Source of the DNA: a virus | Lineage: Duplodnaviria > Heunggongvirae > Uroviricota > Caudoviricetes | Virus record (IMG/VR): IMGVR_UViG_2718217789_000003 | DNA: 64,000 nt | Strand: one strand, 5' to 3' | Shown: positions 27,001 to 33,000 of the stretch, piece by piece | Position numbering within the stretch: position 1 is the stretch's first letter | How the letters are laid out: each line of letters opens with the position of its first letter | Position numbers: made by a program

Positions 27001-30000
27001 GTATGGACTGTATGTCACGGACACACCGGAAAAGACATCATGCCCGGTAAAACGTATACCGAAGCAGAATGCAAAGCCCTCCTGAATAAAGACCTTGCCA
27101 CGGTCGCCAGACAAATTAACCCGTACATCAACGTCGATATACCGGAAACAACGCGCGGCGCTCTTTACTCGTTCGTTTACAACGTGGGCGCTGGCAATTT
27201 CAGAACATCGACGCTTCTTCGCAAAATAAACCAGGGCGATATCAAAGGCGCATGTGATCAGCTACGGCGCTGGACATACGCTGGCGGTAAGCAATGGAAA
27301 GGGCTGATGACTCGCCGCGAGATTGAGCGTGAAGTCTGTTTGTGGGGGCAACAATGAGCAGGGTAACCGTTATTATCTCCGCTCTGGTTATCTGCATTAT
27401 CGCCTGCCTGTCATGGGCTGTTAATCATTACCGTGATAACGCCATCGCCTACAAAGAGCAGCGCGATAAAGCCACATCCATCATCGCTGATATGCAGAAG
27501 CGGCAACGTGATGTAGCAGAACTTGACGCCAGATACACAAAGGAGCTTGCTGATGCTAATGCGACTATCGAAAGTCTCCGTGCTGATGTTTCTGCTGGGC
27601 GTAAGCGCCTGCAAGTCTCCGCCACCTGTGCAAAGTCAACGACCGGAGCCAGCAGCATGGGCGATGGAGAAAGCCCAGGACTTACAGCAGATGCTGAACT
27701 CAATTATTACCGTCTCCGAGGTGGAATCGACAAGATAACCGCGCAGGTTAACTACCTGCAGGAGTACATCAGGACGCAATGCCTGAAATAATTTTTTTTG
27801 CAAATCACAAAGTCCATTTAATGAGCCTCGCGATGCGGGGCTTTTTGCAATAAATGCGTACCGCAACGCATGTTTTTTACACCGAACCTGCCCCTTTGGA
27901 ATGGGCCTTTGAGGATACCAGTTAGTGCTGGCGAGCCTCGGTGGGCTGGTTTCCTGTGCGGCAAAGGTTCATTTCAAAGAGTAGGTACACGCTATGAAAT
28001 CATTAACCCTCTTCAATCAACCAATCCGTATCGGTGAAGATGGCATGATCTGCCTCACTGATATGTGGAAAGCCAGTGGTAAAAGTGAATCTGAATCTCC
28101 GTACCACTACCTGCGAAACAAGCAGACCAAAGAGTTCTTGGCTGAGCTGGAGAAAAACCACGAATCTGTGGTTTTTACGGAACGCGGTGCGCACGGTGGA
28201 ACTTATGGCGGAAAGTTCGTTGCTTATGATTACGCAGCATGGCTAAACCCCGGATTTAAATATGCAGCCTATAAAGTCCTCGATGATTACTTCACCGGAG
28301 AGCTTCATCATCGGAACAGCTTAAGTGCGCAGCTCAACATGAAATGTCATGAGTTTGATCAGAAAAAAGACATGGCGAGCTTCTGTGGACAAGGCCTCGC
28401 GGCATGGCGCTACACGAAACCTGGTTTGATCGCTGAAATTAACTCCCTGGCTAACCAGTTGCAGATTTCGATCCCCGGGCTTCCGGGATGAGTGATCGTG
28501 TCATTGAATGCGCCTCCAGAGCGGGGCGCGACTTCTCAGAGTTCATGAAAGGCGAGAAGGGTATGATGGAAGCATTGGCCTCGGTGGATGAGTTTGGCGA
28601 GCAGCTGCGCCTCAACGGCTGTGTCAATCATCACTTTGTTAGCTACATGATGCGGAACTCGATCATGCAGGCATTCATGGACATGGCAAAAGCCGAGAGG
28701 AAAGAAGAGCGCCGGCGTAAGCGAGCGGAAGCAAAAGCGAAGTAGCCATTACAAAGCCCATCTACTGGTGGGCTTGATAATGGCTTATACCCTACACGGG
28801 ATAACTTAACTGATATCCCTTTTAACGGATAAAGGTATTCAAGCCTGACACATCATGCGCTGTATCGTCGCTGTATTTCCGCATTAACCATGACCGTAGC
28901 CCGACGGGGAATTCCTTCTGCGCGAGTGTGCGGGGATAATCAAAAACGATACACACCGGGGTTTACCGCGTAAACGGAGCGCGGCGTTCTCCCCTCATGG
29001 TCGCCCGTCCGGTGCGATGGTGGAAGAAACTGGAATCTGTTCAATAAAAAAACTGCCGTGTTGGAGTCACAGCAGTAATGTACTGATTGGGTAGAAGATT
29101 ATTATTGTTATGCTTTATTTTTATTCTATATGGCTGATTATTTCAATTCGGAATTAATACAGCTAATGTCTGTGAGTTTTTATAAATTCAGCAATATAAA
29201 GAAATAGTTATATGAACAGCCATCGCAGAGCATACTGTGTATCATTCTTTTTTATAGTCAACTGACGGGCATATTTTATGTCTGCTGCCAGCTCCCGGCG
29301 GCAAGATTCAATGACCCACGCAGAAAAATTTTCTGAACCTTTCTGGTCAAGAGCGATGTTAATTTGTTCAATCATCTGGTTTGGAAATCGGATGTTGCGG
29401 GTTGTTGTTCTGCGGGGCCGGTTTTTCGATGACATTTTCTTTCCTCTGGTGACAAGCTATATGGCGAGGATTTTACATGGCTGTGCTTCGTACGTTACCG
29501 GGCAGAATCAAAACTCTGAACACCCGGCGGGTGAATATTCTGAAGGGTGAACAGCGTCGTGTCAGTGGCAGTGCACGTGTTTCCCTCAAGCGTCATATCT
29601 GGCTCAGGGATGCCGGGCAGTGCTGTCTCTGTGGTCGTGTGGTTGACCTCTGTGACAGTGAACTCGATCACCGAATTGCACTTCAGTTCGGTGGTGGTAA
29701 TGAGGAGACGAATCTCTGGACGCTCTGTACCGAATGCCATCGACAAAAGTCTGCTCGTGAAGCGGCGGGTGGTATGCCGGACCCGACGCTGCCGGAGGTG
29801 TCCGGAGGTCATGGCAGGGCAGACGATATCATCGGACTGTGACCCGCCCCGGGGGGGGGGGGATCATCCGGCGAAAAAAACGATCGCCCTGGACACCGCG
29901 CCCCCTCTCACGCAGAGAAAAAATTCCCGTTTCAGGGCAGTTAACATGTTAACTGGCTGCCCGGGCATTTTTGCGGTTTTTATCTTTATTATTCAGTTTG

Positions 30001-33000
30001 TTGTGCGGAAAAAATGTTAACAGGCTTTTTCAGCAAATGTTAACCAGGCAGCAGTTAACATTTGCGGCATGAGACGCCGGGAAAAATGGGCTGAACCATA
30101 CCCGGCTGAGTGCGTTCTGGACCCGGGAGGAGGCTGTGCTGACAACGCAAAAACGAAAATTTGCGCTGGCGCTCATGTCCGGGAAAAACAAAACAGCGTC
30201 AGCCCTTGCCGCCGGTTATTCGGCGAAGACAGCCAGGGTTAAAGGCTCGCAGCTGGCAAAAGATCCGGAGGTGCTTGCGTTTATAGCCCGTAAACAGTGC
30301 GAGACGGTGGAGGTGGATGAGGTTCCTGTTTATCGGCAGAAAAAATCAGAGCCGGAGGATAAACCCCGTCGCCGTGAGGCGGCTGCAATACCACAGCCGG
30401 ACGAAACAAATCCGGAGATGCCACCGCCCGTGGTGATATCTCCTGGTATTGAGTATATGGAGGACGGTCTTCCCGATCCGGTGAAAGCGATGGGGCGTCT
30501 TCTGGTGGAGAACATTAATACCGACCCCAGGCTGGCGCTGGATGCGGCTTATAAGCTGGCGCAGTTCACGCACCACAAAAAAGGGGATGCCGGTAAAAAA
30601 TCGGCAAAAGGTGACGCGGCGAAAAAAGCGGCTAACCGTTTTGCGGTGCCACCACCACCCCGCCTGGTGGTGAATAATGATAATGAGGGCAACGGATGAT
30701 ACCTGTGTGGAGCACGGCCTGCCCGGACTGGGCAGAGCGCCTGAAAAAGGGGCTGTCGATTATTCCGGCTCCGATTTATCCGGAGCAGGCCGCACATGCC
30801 CTGGCGATTTTTAAACAACTGCGGATTGTGGATGCACCGGGCAGCCCGACGTTCGGGGAGTCCTGCGCACAGTGGGTGTTTGACCTGGTGGCGGCCCTGT
30901 TTGGCTCCTACGATGCGCAGACCGGTGTACGCCATATCAAGGAAGTTTTTATCCTTATCCCCAAGAAAAACAGCAAGTCCACGCTGGCTGCCGGGATCAT
31001 GATGACGGCGCTGTTACTGAACTGGCGGCAGGCGGCGGGCTACACCATTCTGGCCCCGACCGTGGAGGTGGCGGCTAACGCCTTCAACCCTGCCAGGGAT
31101 ATGGTACGACGGGACGATGATCTGGATGACCTCTGTCAGGTGCAGACACATATCCGGACCATCACCCACAGGGTGACGGACACCACCCTGAAGGTGGTGG
31201 CTGCCGATCCGAATACGGTATCCGGTATCAAGTCCGTGGGGACGCTGATTGATGAACTGTGGTTATTTGGCAAGCAGTACAAAGCGGAGGACATGTTACG
31301 TGAAGCCATAGGCGGCCTTGCCTCCCGCCCGGAAGGGTTTGTGGTGTATACGACCACCCAGTCGAATGAGCCGCCAGCCGGGGTGTTCAGACAGAAACTG
31401 CAGTACGCCCGGGATGTCCGTGACGGCAAAATTCATGATCCGCACTTTCTGCCGGTGATTTTTGAGCATCCTCCTGAAATGGTGGAAAGCGGGGCTCACC
31501 TGCTGATGGAAAACCTCGCCATGGTTAACCCGAATCTCGGTTATTCGGTGGATGAGGCTTTTCTGTACCGGGAGTACCGTAAAGCCCGGGAGGCTGGTGA
31601 GGAAGCATTTCGTGGCTTCATGTCAAAACATGCCAATGTGGAAATTGGTCTTGCCCTGCGTTCTGACCGCTGGGCGGGTGCGGATTTCTGGGAGCAGCAG
31701 GGCAGGCGCGTCAGCCTGGACGATATCCTGCAGCGCGCTGATGTGGTGACGGTGGGGATTGACGGCGGGGGCCTGGATGATCTGCTGGGAATGTACGTGA
31801 CTGGCCGTGACAGGGAAACCCGCGAATGGCTGGGCTGGGGCCATGCCTGGGCGCATGAAACCGCGGTGGTCCGACGGAAGAGCGAGGCGTCCCGGTTTCA
31901 GGATCTTGTTGCCTGTGGAGATATGACCATTGTCCGGCGTGTCGGGGATGACACGGCGGAAGTGGCGGAATATGTGCGTCGCATTCATGAGGCTGAGTTA
32001 CTGGACCATATCGGTATTGACCCGTCAGGGGTGGGGCAGATTCTGGATTCACTGGCGGAAGCCGGGATCCCCGACGGAATTGTGGTGGGGATAAGCCAGG
32101 GCTGGAAACTGGGCGGGGCCATTAAAACCACCGAGCGCAAACTGGCTGAAGGGGTGCTGGTGCATGGTGACCAGCCCCTGATGGCCTGGTGTGTCGGCAA
32201 TGCCCGGGTGGAGCCTAAAGGTAACGCCATTCTTATCACCAAACAGGCCAGTGGACGGGGAAAAATTGACCCGCTGATGGCGCTGTTCAATGCGGTCTCC
32301 CTGATGTCCCTTAACCCGGAACCGAAAAAGAAAGAATATGCGGTTTTTTTCATATAACCCTGTTCACACTGTAACCATCATGAACCGCTGCGGCGGTTTT
32401 TTTATTTTCAGGAGGCTGATGTGACTCTTAAACGGGCCTGTTCCCTGCTGACGGTGAAATCCTTCAGTGAGGATGAACGGGTGATCACCGGGATTGCGTC
32501 AACGCCTTCTCCGGATCGGGATGGTGACATCCTGGAGCCGGAGGGCGCGGAGTTTGGCAGTGCGATCCCGTTTCTCTGGCAGCATGACCATTCCCGCCCG
32601 GTGGGGCAGTGTACGGTGCGCCGGGTCAGCGAAGGGCTGGAAATCACGGCAACACTGGTGAAGCCCGTACCGGATATGCCGTCGCAACTGGCTGCCCGGC
32701 TGGATGAGGTCTGGGCGGCCATTAAGACCGGGCTGGTCAGGGGGCTGTCCGTGGGCTTCCGTCCCCATGAATACACCTTTCTGGACGGAGGCGGACTGCA
32801 TTTTCTGCGCTGGGAACTGATGGAGGTGTCTGCCGTCACCGTGCCCGCGAATGCGGAATGCACCATCCGGACCATTAAATCTTACGACCGCCCGTTTTCT
32901 GCCGCGTCCGGCAACCGGAAACCGGTGGTGAAAATCGCATCTTCTGCCGGCGCTGCGGCACAGTCAACAACCGTTTTTCATAAGGAAAAGACCATAATGA

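Follow-up and report, generated by a model that had tools for sequence, protein, structure and literature searches.

The closest described counterparts of the site reported here are the cohesive-end sites (cos) of phages whose large terminase subunit (TerL) is of the HK97 type. In HK97 the order is HNH endonuclease gene (gp74), cos, small terminase subunit gene (terS, gp1) and terL (gp2). The HK97 TerS has a 15-bp minimal site at +15 to +29, which includes an A-tract, the DNA threads through the TerS ring, and a division of the cutting was suggested, with HNH taking one strand and TerL the second (PMC11331095). The measured specificity of terminase-adjacent HNH nickases is CG^GT, equivalent to AC^CG (PMC3592412). 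For Pseudomonas phage D3 a preprint cites a 9-nt cos, GCGCCCCCA (PMC12407980), and the paper on Lys8385Vzw (MT225100, an Stx1 phage that groups with phage 1717) assigns it by PhageTerm to the cos phages, with 3' cohesive ends of sequence CGCCCCCCCT (PMC7946995). In lambda-like phages, simple (N15) and complex (lambda, 21, Monarch) forms of cosB coexist (PMC4669245). We analyzed the interval between the HNH and TerS genes in a stretch of 64,000 nucleotides, here called the window, from the Caudoviricetes record IMGVR_UViG_2718217789_000003. Our reading, to which we give a probability of roughly 70%, is that this interval is the cos site of a Shiga toxin 2 (Stx2)-converting lambdoid prophage that uses an HNH-assisted, HK97-type terminase, and that its GTTAAC elements and its run of G residues are parts of that site.

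The window is a phage-2851-like Stx2 prophage of Escherichia coli O157:H7, with the gene order HNH, TerS and HK97-type TerL. The region is 99.7% identical to Stx2c phage 2851 (FM180578), and a 1351-bp query matched more than a dozen complete O157:H7 genomes at 100%. For comparison, a TerL-alignment scan of one genome per species yielded 80 prophage loci from Enterobacterales, Burkholderiales, Pseudomonas and others, with TerL 57–84% identical. Fifty-five loci, the window and Salmonella phage FSL SP-016 included, share the right-flank anchor C.CACGC.CAGAAAAAAT, from which positions are numbered with +1 at 29907 of the window. Per-position variability was taken from 67 distinct close relatives, and a GTDB genome scan with TerS alone found no relatives. 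An HNH open reading frame lies on the + strand upstream of the cos anchor in 55/55 loci, with 46 to 1135 nt between its stop codon and the anchor. When the window was aligned with FSL SP-016, the conserved island ran from the G-run through the GTTAAC palindrome, and the sequence on both sides had diverged.

The ends of Lys8385Vzw, D3, phiL7, HK97 and SfV all align to 29897–29906. The first three place the predicted nick site (cosN), a 3' cohesive end segment of sequence CGCGCCCCCT, at this position with a left boundary uncertain by 1 nt. The segment is C-rich and lies 34 nt to the right of the G-run and 31 nt to the left of the palindrome. The record of Lys8385Vzw finishes with ...GGACACCGCCCCCCCT and resumes at CTCACGCAGAG (CTCACGCAGAGAAAAAATTCCCG...). 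This break corresponds exactly to 29906|29907, and a single base distinguishes the Lys8385Vzw cohesive sequence from that of the window. The D3 record has GCGCCCCCA at its right end, within ...GGACACCGCGCCCCCA, and 8/9 of these bases are the same as at 29898–29906, with a TerL identity of just 21%. The record of Xanthomonas phage phiL7 has its first base exactly 10 nt before the anchor, the HK97 record end reads ...GAC|CGCCGCCAAA, and the experimentally determined 10-nt cos of SfV and SfI, TGCCCGCCCC, directly follows GGAC. The cut position in the relatives, like the layout, conservation and spacing of the features around it, is what these comparisons show. The 10-nt cohesive sequence has already been reported for the sister phage Lys8385Vzw, in a paper whose searched passages give the 10-mer alone and leave the flanking elements undescribed (PMC7946995). 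A literature search for the cohesive 10-mers returned irrelevant matches only.

The left boundary of the segment carries the motif GGACACCG (29891–29898, + strand), with ACCG at 29895–29898. This ACCG occurs at −12 to −9 in 41/55 loci (per position A 100%, C 91%, C 95% and G 75%), so that an AC|CG junction falls precisely on the left margin of the 10-nt segment, and it coincides with the CG^GT nickase specificity at the predicted position of the bottom-strand nick. The segment itself is variable and C/T-rich across the 55 loci. To its right, the flank CTCACGCAGAGAAAAAATTCCCG (29907–29929, + strand), which holds A6 at 29918–29923, is the most conserved stretch across the 55 loci, regardless of the type of TerS. 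An initial annotation of this interval had listed CCCC-G12, an 18-bp palindrome and three further copies of its motif in both orientations, and had proposed that packaging starts here. Direct reading and a repeat search found all of these features where they had been described, and the interval does hold the packaging start, as the cos site of an HNH-assisted, HK97-type terminase, but the cleavage 10-mer at 29897–29906 between the listed features had been missed.

Other records were considered as evidence for the ends. That of phi330 mentions cohesive ends but is arbitrarily permuted inside terS and is thus uninformative on the ends, and those of BR178a and vB_PR5, which start 35 and 22 nt upstream of terS, were not used since no statement of mapped ends was found for them. 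Relatives at least 97% identical are polymorphic in the cohesive sequence (CGCGCCCCCT, CGCCCCCCCT and CGCCCCCCGT), with counts of 36:27 for G/C at 29900 and 46:21 for C/G at 29905. Co-resident prophages could therefore yield chromosomes with mismatched ends.

On the left side of the cut, the G12 run occupies 29851–29862 (+ strand), directly after CCCC at 29847–29850, and 34 nt separate its 3' end from the predicted bottom-strand nick. It is the sole run of at least 8 G in the window and the longest among the loci compared. A run of at least 5 G on the + strand, within 70 nt to the left of the cut region, is present in 49/55 loci, compared with 2.2% of control windows from the same loci, and in 44/52 loci the final G is positioned between −46 and −42 relative to the anchor. 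In diverse prophage loci the run is 5–12 G long and ends about 33–36 bp before the cut. The pattern extends to described phages: in HK97 and HK022 a G9, with ATCAAATC after it, ends 32 nt short of the AC|CG junction, the G8 of phiL7 likewise ends 32 nt before it, and interrupted G-rich blocks are found 30 nt before it in D3 (GGGGTGGGGCGGG) and 31 nt before it in SfV (GGGGAGGGGCGGG). The stretch between the HNH stop codon and the anchor ranges from 46 to 1135 nt whereas the spacing of the G-run is fixed, so the run tracks the cut site rather than the HNH gene. It accompanies three or more unrelated TerS types and therefore belongs with the TerL/HNH side of the machine. Judged from these comparisons, the G-run is a conserved left-hand cos element, widespread and uncharacterised. 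A literature search of limited extent returned no description of an upstream element in HK97-type cos sites.

The length of the tract differs between close relatives: 11 in Z869, 10 in phi330, 9 in BP-4795, 7 in Lys8385Vzw and 6–10 in relatives from IMG/VR, with G12 also in the Sanger-sequenced phage 2851. Relatives at least 97% identical range from 6 to 12 G, although part of this variation may be homopolymer sequencing error. The additional Gs are gained at the end distal to the cut, and slippage therefore leaves the spacing between G-run and cut unchanged. The run could act as a cosQ-like termination signal or as a positioning site for TerL/HNH, both being candidate roles. We also considered pairing of the G-run with the C-rich cohesive sequence, which holds for SfV (GGGGCGGG / CCCGCCCC) but fails in general.

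An insertion sequence (IS) was observed inside this element in other prophages. ISEc20, of the IS110 family, lies within the cos G-run of prophage PPompW_132418 (LC567822.1; positions 1146–2604 of our locus L173), at a point corresponding to about 29858 of the window, and the junction reads ...CGGGGGGG | IS | GGGGGATCATCC. The same junction occurs in at least seven records. In the PPompW prophages with ISEc20 the lysis genes and HNH are missing, and the Q and tRNA genes abut the IS. With ISEc20 in the G-run and HNH missing, the PPompW packaging site is probably disabled.

On the right side of the cut, the perfect 18-bp palindrome CAGTTAACATGTTAACTG lies at 29938–29955 (+32 to +49), and we propose it as the primary TerS recognition site. 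In FSL SP-016 and most loci with TerS of type A, whose N-terminus is MLTAQKRK or MALTAKKR, the TerS ATG is found inside the inverted repeat TGTAAAC-ATG-TTAACA or TTGTTAATGGCTTTAACA, ~39 nt past the cut. The window palindrome corresponds to this element, lies as far from the anchor as the TerS start does in these relatives and, by this comparison, marks the ancestral TerS start. GTTAA/TTAAC is present here in 28/28 type A loci and in 0/15 type B loci (TerS MAGVKGRSGG...), which carry AATCAAATG in place of GTTAAC. This covariation is partly trivial, since TTAACA encodes Leu-Thr and the 5' leader is inherited with the gene. In two Burkholderiaceae loci in which TerS is also displaced (L101 and L113), the palindrome next to the cut has no ATG (TGTTAAAGGGGTTTAACA and TGTTAAAGCTTTAACA), extra TGTTAA copies lie in the spacer, and the real TerS start has been recoded to CTGAC or TTGAC. 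This arrangement matches that of the window and carries more weight than the covariation.

The half-site ATGTTAAC occurs 6 times on both strands of the window, compared with 1.72 expected from shuffles, and 5/6 copies fall within 122 bp. A Poisson estimate of the chance that some 122-bp interval holds 4 or more independent copies, corrected for the number of intervals, is ~3e-9. These five half-sites, three on the + strand and two on the − strand, lie between the nick site and terS. The palindrome is invariant in the 67 relatives bar one singleton, and motif positions are variable at 1/38 compared with 22/158 in the rest of the insertion described below (p=0.04). The GTTAAC elements are thus probable docking sites for the small terminase. 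The suggestion of TerS recognition sites in the initial annotation is favored in so far as the comparative data make these elements the best candidates, with binding itself a prediction from sequence. The palindrome is also the core of an imperfect palindrome of ~54 bp at 29919–29972 (AAAAATTCCCG ... CGGGCATTTTT).

Loci with TerS beginning MAGVKG or MTGK (L099, L106, L107, L115, L163 and others) keep the G-run, cut site and right flank and have one to three copies of AATCAAA(TG) before the TerS start instead of GTTAAC. AATCAAA(TG) could, from its position, be the recognition motif of a second TerS type.

Between the ancestral site and the present TerS start, the window contains a lineage-specific insertion of ~180 bp (29956–30135) that is absent from FSL SP-016 and most related loci; analogous insertions are found in L101 and L113. 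The repeat search located one AAATGTTAAC copy at 30012–30021 (+ strand), which we propose as an accessory TerS site. It is followed by a perfect 12-bp inverted repeat with a 9-nt spacer, GCAAATGTTAAC-N9-GTTAACATTTGC (30033–30044 and 30054–30065), whose left arm contains a second AAATGTTAAC copy (30035–30044, + strand) and whose right arm contains a GTTAACATTT copy (30054–30063, − strand). The actual TerS start lies 190 nt beyond the ATG at 29946 and reads GTG CTG ACA, synonymous with ATG TTA ACA. With the three extra copies, a simple site may have become a complex one in this lineage, resembling, by analogy, the complex cosB of lambda.

An inverted repeat of 15–16 nt, ATGTTAACTGGCTGCC / GGCAGCAGTTAACAT (29946–29961 and 30047–30061), brackets much of the insertion and, like the imperfect palindrome of ~54 bp, hints that the insertion arose by inverted duplication. 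The ancestral TerS ATG opens a 24-codon open reading frame, MLTGCPGIFAVFIFIIQFVVRKKC (29946–30020, + strand), which is hydrophobic, ends inside the next ATGTTAAC copy and has a weak ribosome-binding site. It gave no match in a PHROG search and is probably a vestige.

We compared these elements with the known systems. In addition to the gene order and TerL type, the site shares with HK97 a 10-nt C-rich 3' overhang after AC|CG, which in the window is predicted, an A/T-tract just right of the cut and a G-run on its left. It differs in that HK97 has no GTTAAC repeats, its terS starts 49 nt from the cut, and its TerS belongs to another family and gives no Pfam match; its TerL (gp2) is 23% identical to that of the window (BLASTP 4e-11). 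D3 has a near-identical left half of cos, with a G-rich block, a ~30-nt spacer and GGACACCGCGCCCCC, and an HNH gene upstream, whereas its right flank and TerS are unrelated and its G block is interrupted. For D3 the HNH identity is 34%, beside the TerL value given above, and the cos DNA site appears, from this comparison, to be better conserved than the enzymes that act on it. Lys8385Vzw is near-identical across the region, palindrome and all repeats included, and differs in having G7 in place of G12 and in its cohesive sequence.

The resemblance to lambda is one of tripartite logic, with an upstream element, a nick site and TerS sites before terS, and of several TerS half-sites in both orientations, which in the window are predicted. 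Lambda has a 12-nt 5' overhang, a TerS of the Nu1 type and a site for integration host factor (IHF), none of which was found here; it also lacks HNH, and its cosQ is a specific 7-bp sequence and not a G-run. A lambda-type cosN, GGGCGGCGACCT, had no match in the region and one 2-mismatch match in the window, at 34196, fewer than expected by chance, and the IHF consensus WATCAANNNNTTR had no match in 29400–30400. With the N.phiGamma group of HNH nickases (Xu and Gupta 2013), the window shares a small HNH gene next to cos/terS and a CG^GT motif at the left boundary of the cohesive end. The characterised enzymes of this group come from Gram-positive phages, whereas nicking by the HNH protein of the window is predicted.

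We propose that the concatemer would be cut at 29897–29906 to leave a 9–10-nt 3' overhang, CGCGCCCCCT. The bottom-strand nick would fall at the conserved AC|CG boundary, fitting an HNH enzyme, and the top-strand nick 10 nt on, after 29906, fitting TerL. The N-terminal helix-turn-helix domains of TerS would recognize the palindrome, as the equivalent of cosB, and the accessory copies, thereby marking the start of the chromosome, and the common A-tract flank may add DNA shape, as in HK97. The ~180-bp insertion would have pushed the TerS gene away and added three half-site copies, turning a simple site into a complex one. The weakest step assigns the G-run a cosQ-like part: on reaching the terminal cos, the TerL/HNH complex may be positioned or slowed by this run, the 3' end of which is held ~three helical turns from the bottom-strand nick while its length drifts on the far side. 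Which protein binds which element, and what the G-run does, are what we infer from the arrangement of the sequence. A broader proposal would make the G-run, ~three helical turns from the nick, a general and undescribed signal of HNH-assisted HK97-type cos sites, seen in HK97, HK022, D3, phiL7, SfV and numerous proteobacterial prophages, with HNH nicking the bottom and TerL the top strand, and GTTAAC an exchangeable TerS-specific half that has been expanded here. We offer this generalization tentatively and regard it as more doubtful than probable.

Several observations weigh against our reading of the interval. The PhageTerm end call comes from a single paper, in which the coordinates given disagree with one another (PMC7946995). 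The overhangs are 9 nt in D3 and 10 nt in Lys8385Vzw, HK97 and SfI, and because of this difference the left boundary and the exact fit to CG^GT are uncertain by 1 nt. The 55 loci are mutually related, so that the enrichment statistics overstate their independence. The G-run tolerates 5–12 G and is interrupted in many loci, which indicates a loose constraint, and the association of the motif with TerS type is in part confounded. TerS itself matched solved SF6 DNA-binding domains weakly (4ZC3, E=0.34; 2CMP, E=0.66). The HK97 TerS, from a different family, has its site at +15 to +29 instead of +32 to +49. It could be the conserved A-tract flank that TerS actually recognizes.

This last point is taken furthest by the explanation that the GTTAAC copies are functionless scars of duplicated first codons of terS (ATG TTA AC, Met-Leu-Thr), with TerS reading the A-tract flank at +10 to +23. 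The motif does equal the first TerS codons of relatives, the 15–16-nt inverted repeat around the insertion looks like a rearrangement product, the site of the HK97 TerS is an A-tract, and in a family this young (97–99% identity) little decay is expected yet. However, L101 and L113 lost the start codon yet kept or improved the palindrome (TGTTAAAGCTTTAACA), and their extra copies arose independently. The window palindrome is perfect over 18 bp where the ancestral form is imperfect, 10 bases are identical in three copies that have different flanks, and the motif positions vary less than their surroundings. The A-tract flank is moreover the same for TerS types A and B and therefore cannot explain TerS-specific recognition. 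We consider the scar explanation improbable, though it retains some weight. An operator or an RNA element that controls terS, by repression or by a hairpin hiding the start codon, is very unlikely. It would account for an inverted repeat that spans the TerS start codon in most relatives and for a region that folds somewhat better than shuffled sequence (z ~ −2.3). In the window, L101 and L113, however, the element lies 100–190 nt from the real start codon, which has a strong ribosome-binding site, and the ancestral RNA stems are, in our own reading, short and AU-rich. Late transcription in lambdoid phages begins upstream and continues through cos, which also counts against an operator. The initial annotation had offered a regulatory operator as its alternative, and this found no support: scans of the region for promoters, terminators, IHF sites and Rfam families gave no credible match, including none for a + strand promoter.

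The G12 tract could be a contingency switch for phase variation, or a product of sequencing or assembly, as is suggested by the 6 to 12 G among near-identical relatives and by long-read assemblies, which often miscount homopolymers. The length variation foreseen in the initial annotation is real, and the tract is a deeply conserved cos element rather than a local oddity, with no gene or promoter to switch. Placed between the HNH stop codon and TerS, 273 nt from the latter, it is outside any relevant reading frame or promoter spacer, it keeps its spacing from the cut even in distant phages, and its length changes on the side away from the cut. An assembly artefact, named in the initial annotation as a refuting possibility, is contradicted by the G12 of the Sanger-sequenced phage 2851 and by the dozen-plus O157:H7 genomes at 100%. 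A phase switch or artefact is therefore excluded for practical purposes. Least credible of all is a true cut at GGACTGTGACCCGCCCC (29835–29850), directly left of the G-run, which is closer than the downstream site to the SfV cos GGACTGCCCGCCCC and resembles the 10-nt SfV/SfI cos given above. Its C-rich stretch, the one like SfV CCCGCCCC, is the most variable among close relatives (7/8 positions) and is not conserved in FSL SP-016, the ends of Lys8385Vzw, D3 and phiL7 are all at the downstream site, and in SfV the G-rich block is upstream of its cut, as it is for the downstream site here.

The genes around the site fit an HNH-assisted, HK97-type terminase. The HNH endonuclease gene (29477–29842, + strand) matches PF01844 at 29.7 bits (cut-off 21.4) and PHROG 589 at 1e-44, and its stop codon, TGA, was read directly at 29840–29842. 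TerS (30136–30699, + strand) starts with GTG, preceded by the ribosome-binding site GGAGGAGG at 30126–30133, and matches Terminase_2 (PF03592) over residues 2–57 at 34.3 bits (cut-off 26.1) and PHROG 641 at 2e-68. It is 48% identical to the FSL SP-016 TerS, with the N-terminal 60 residues conserved far more strongly. TerL (30696–32357, + strand) matches both PF03354 and PF20441, ATPase and nuclease families of the HK97 type, and its sole match in the PDB is 6Z6D (3e-9), which we take to be the HK97 TerL. Further upstream, ~8 kb before cos, the sequence at 21898 (+ strand) exactly matches the initial 32 bases of stx2A, which places the Shiga toxin 2 operon in the window. The packaging module is present in 1283/5426 complete E. 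coli genomes, with a median of 2 places per genome and a maximum of 8.

The site would decide which DNA enters the particles of a long-tailed Shiga-toxin-2 phage. Knowledge of its parts may help to predict which O157 prophages remain packageable and how far prophages cross-package, several copies of the module per genome being common, and to spot crippled prophages such as PPompW with an IS in the G-run. Two ideas can be tested in HK97, for which an in vitro packaging assay exists: that the upstream G-run is part of cos, and that ACCG marks the HNH nick. Neither overturns current understanding, since cos sites with accessory elements are familiar, and this one is of a known general kind. What is new, and of moderate interest, is that sub-elements have been assigned, that the G-run is widely conserved at a fixed spacing, HK97 included, and that a simple site has given way to a complex one in this lineage.

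Downstream of TerL, a fusion of prohead protease and major capsid protein (32421–34358, 645 aa) comes next, followed by the portal gene (34570–37149, 859 aa). The order TerL, protease-capsid fusion and portal is unusual, and the Phage_portal match is confined to the first ~380 residues of the portal, leaving a long C-terminal part with no assigned domain. On the other side of the module, just 5' of HNH, a small DUF3950 gene of the YlcI/YnfO family (29208–29435, − strand) lies between a KilA-N gene and the packaging module.

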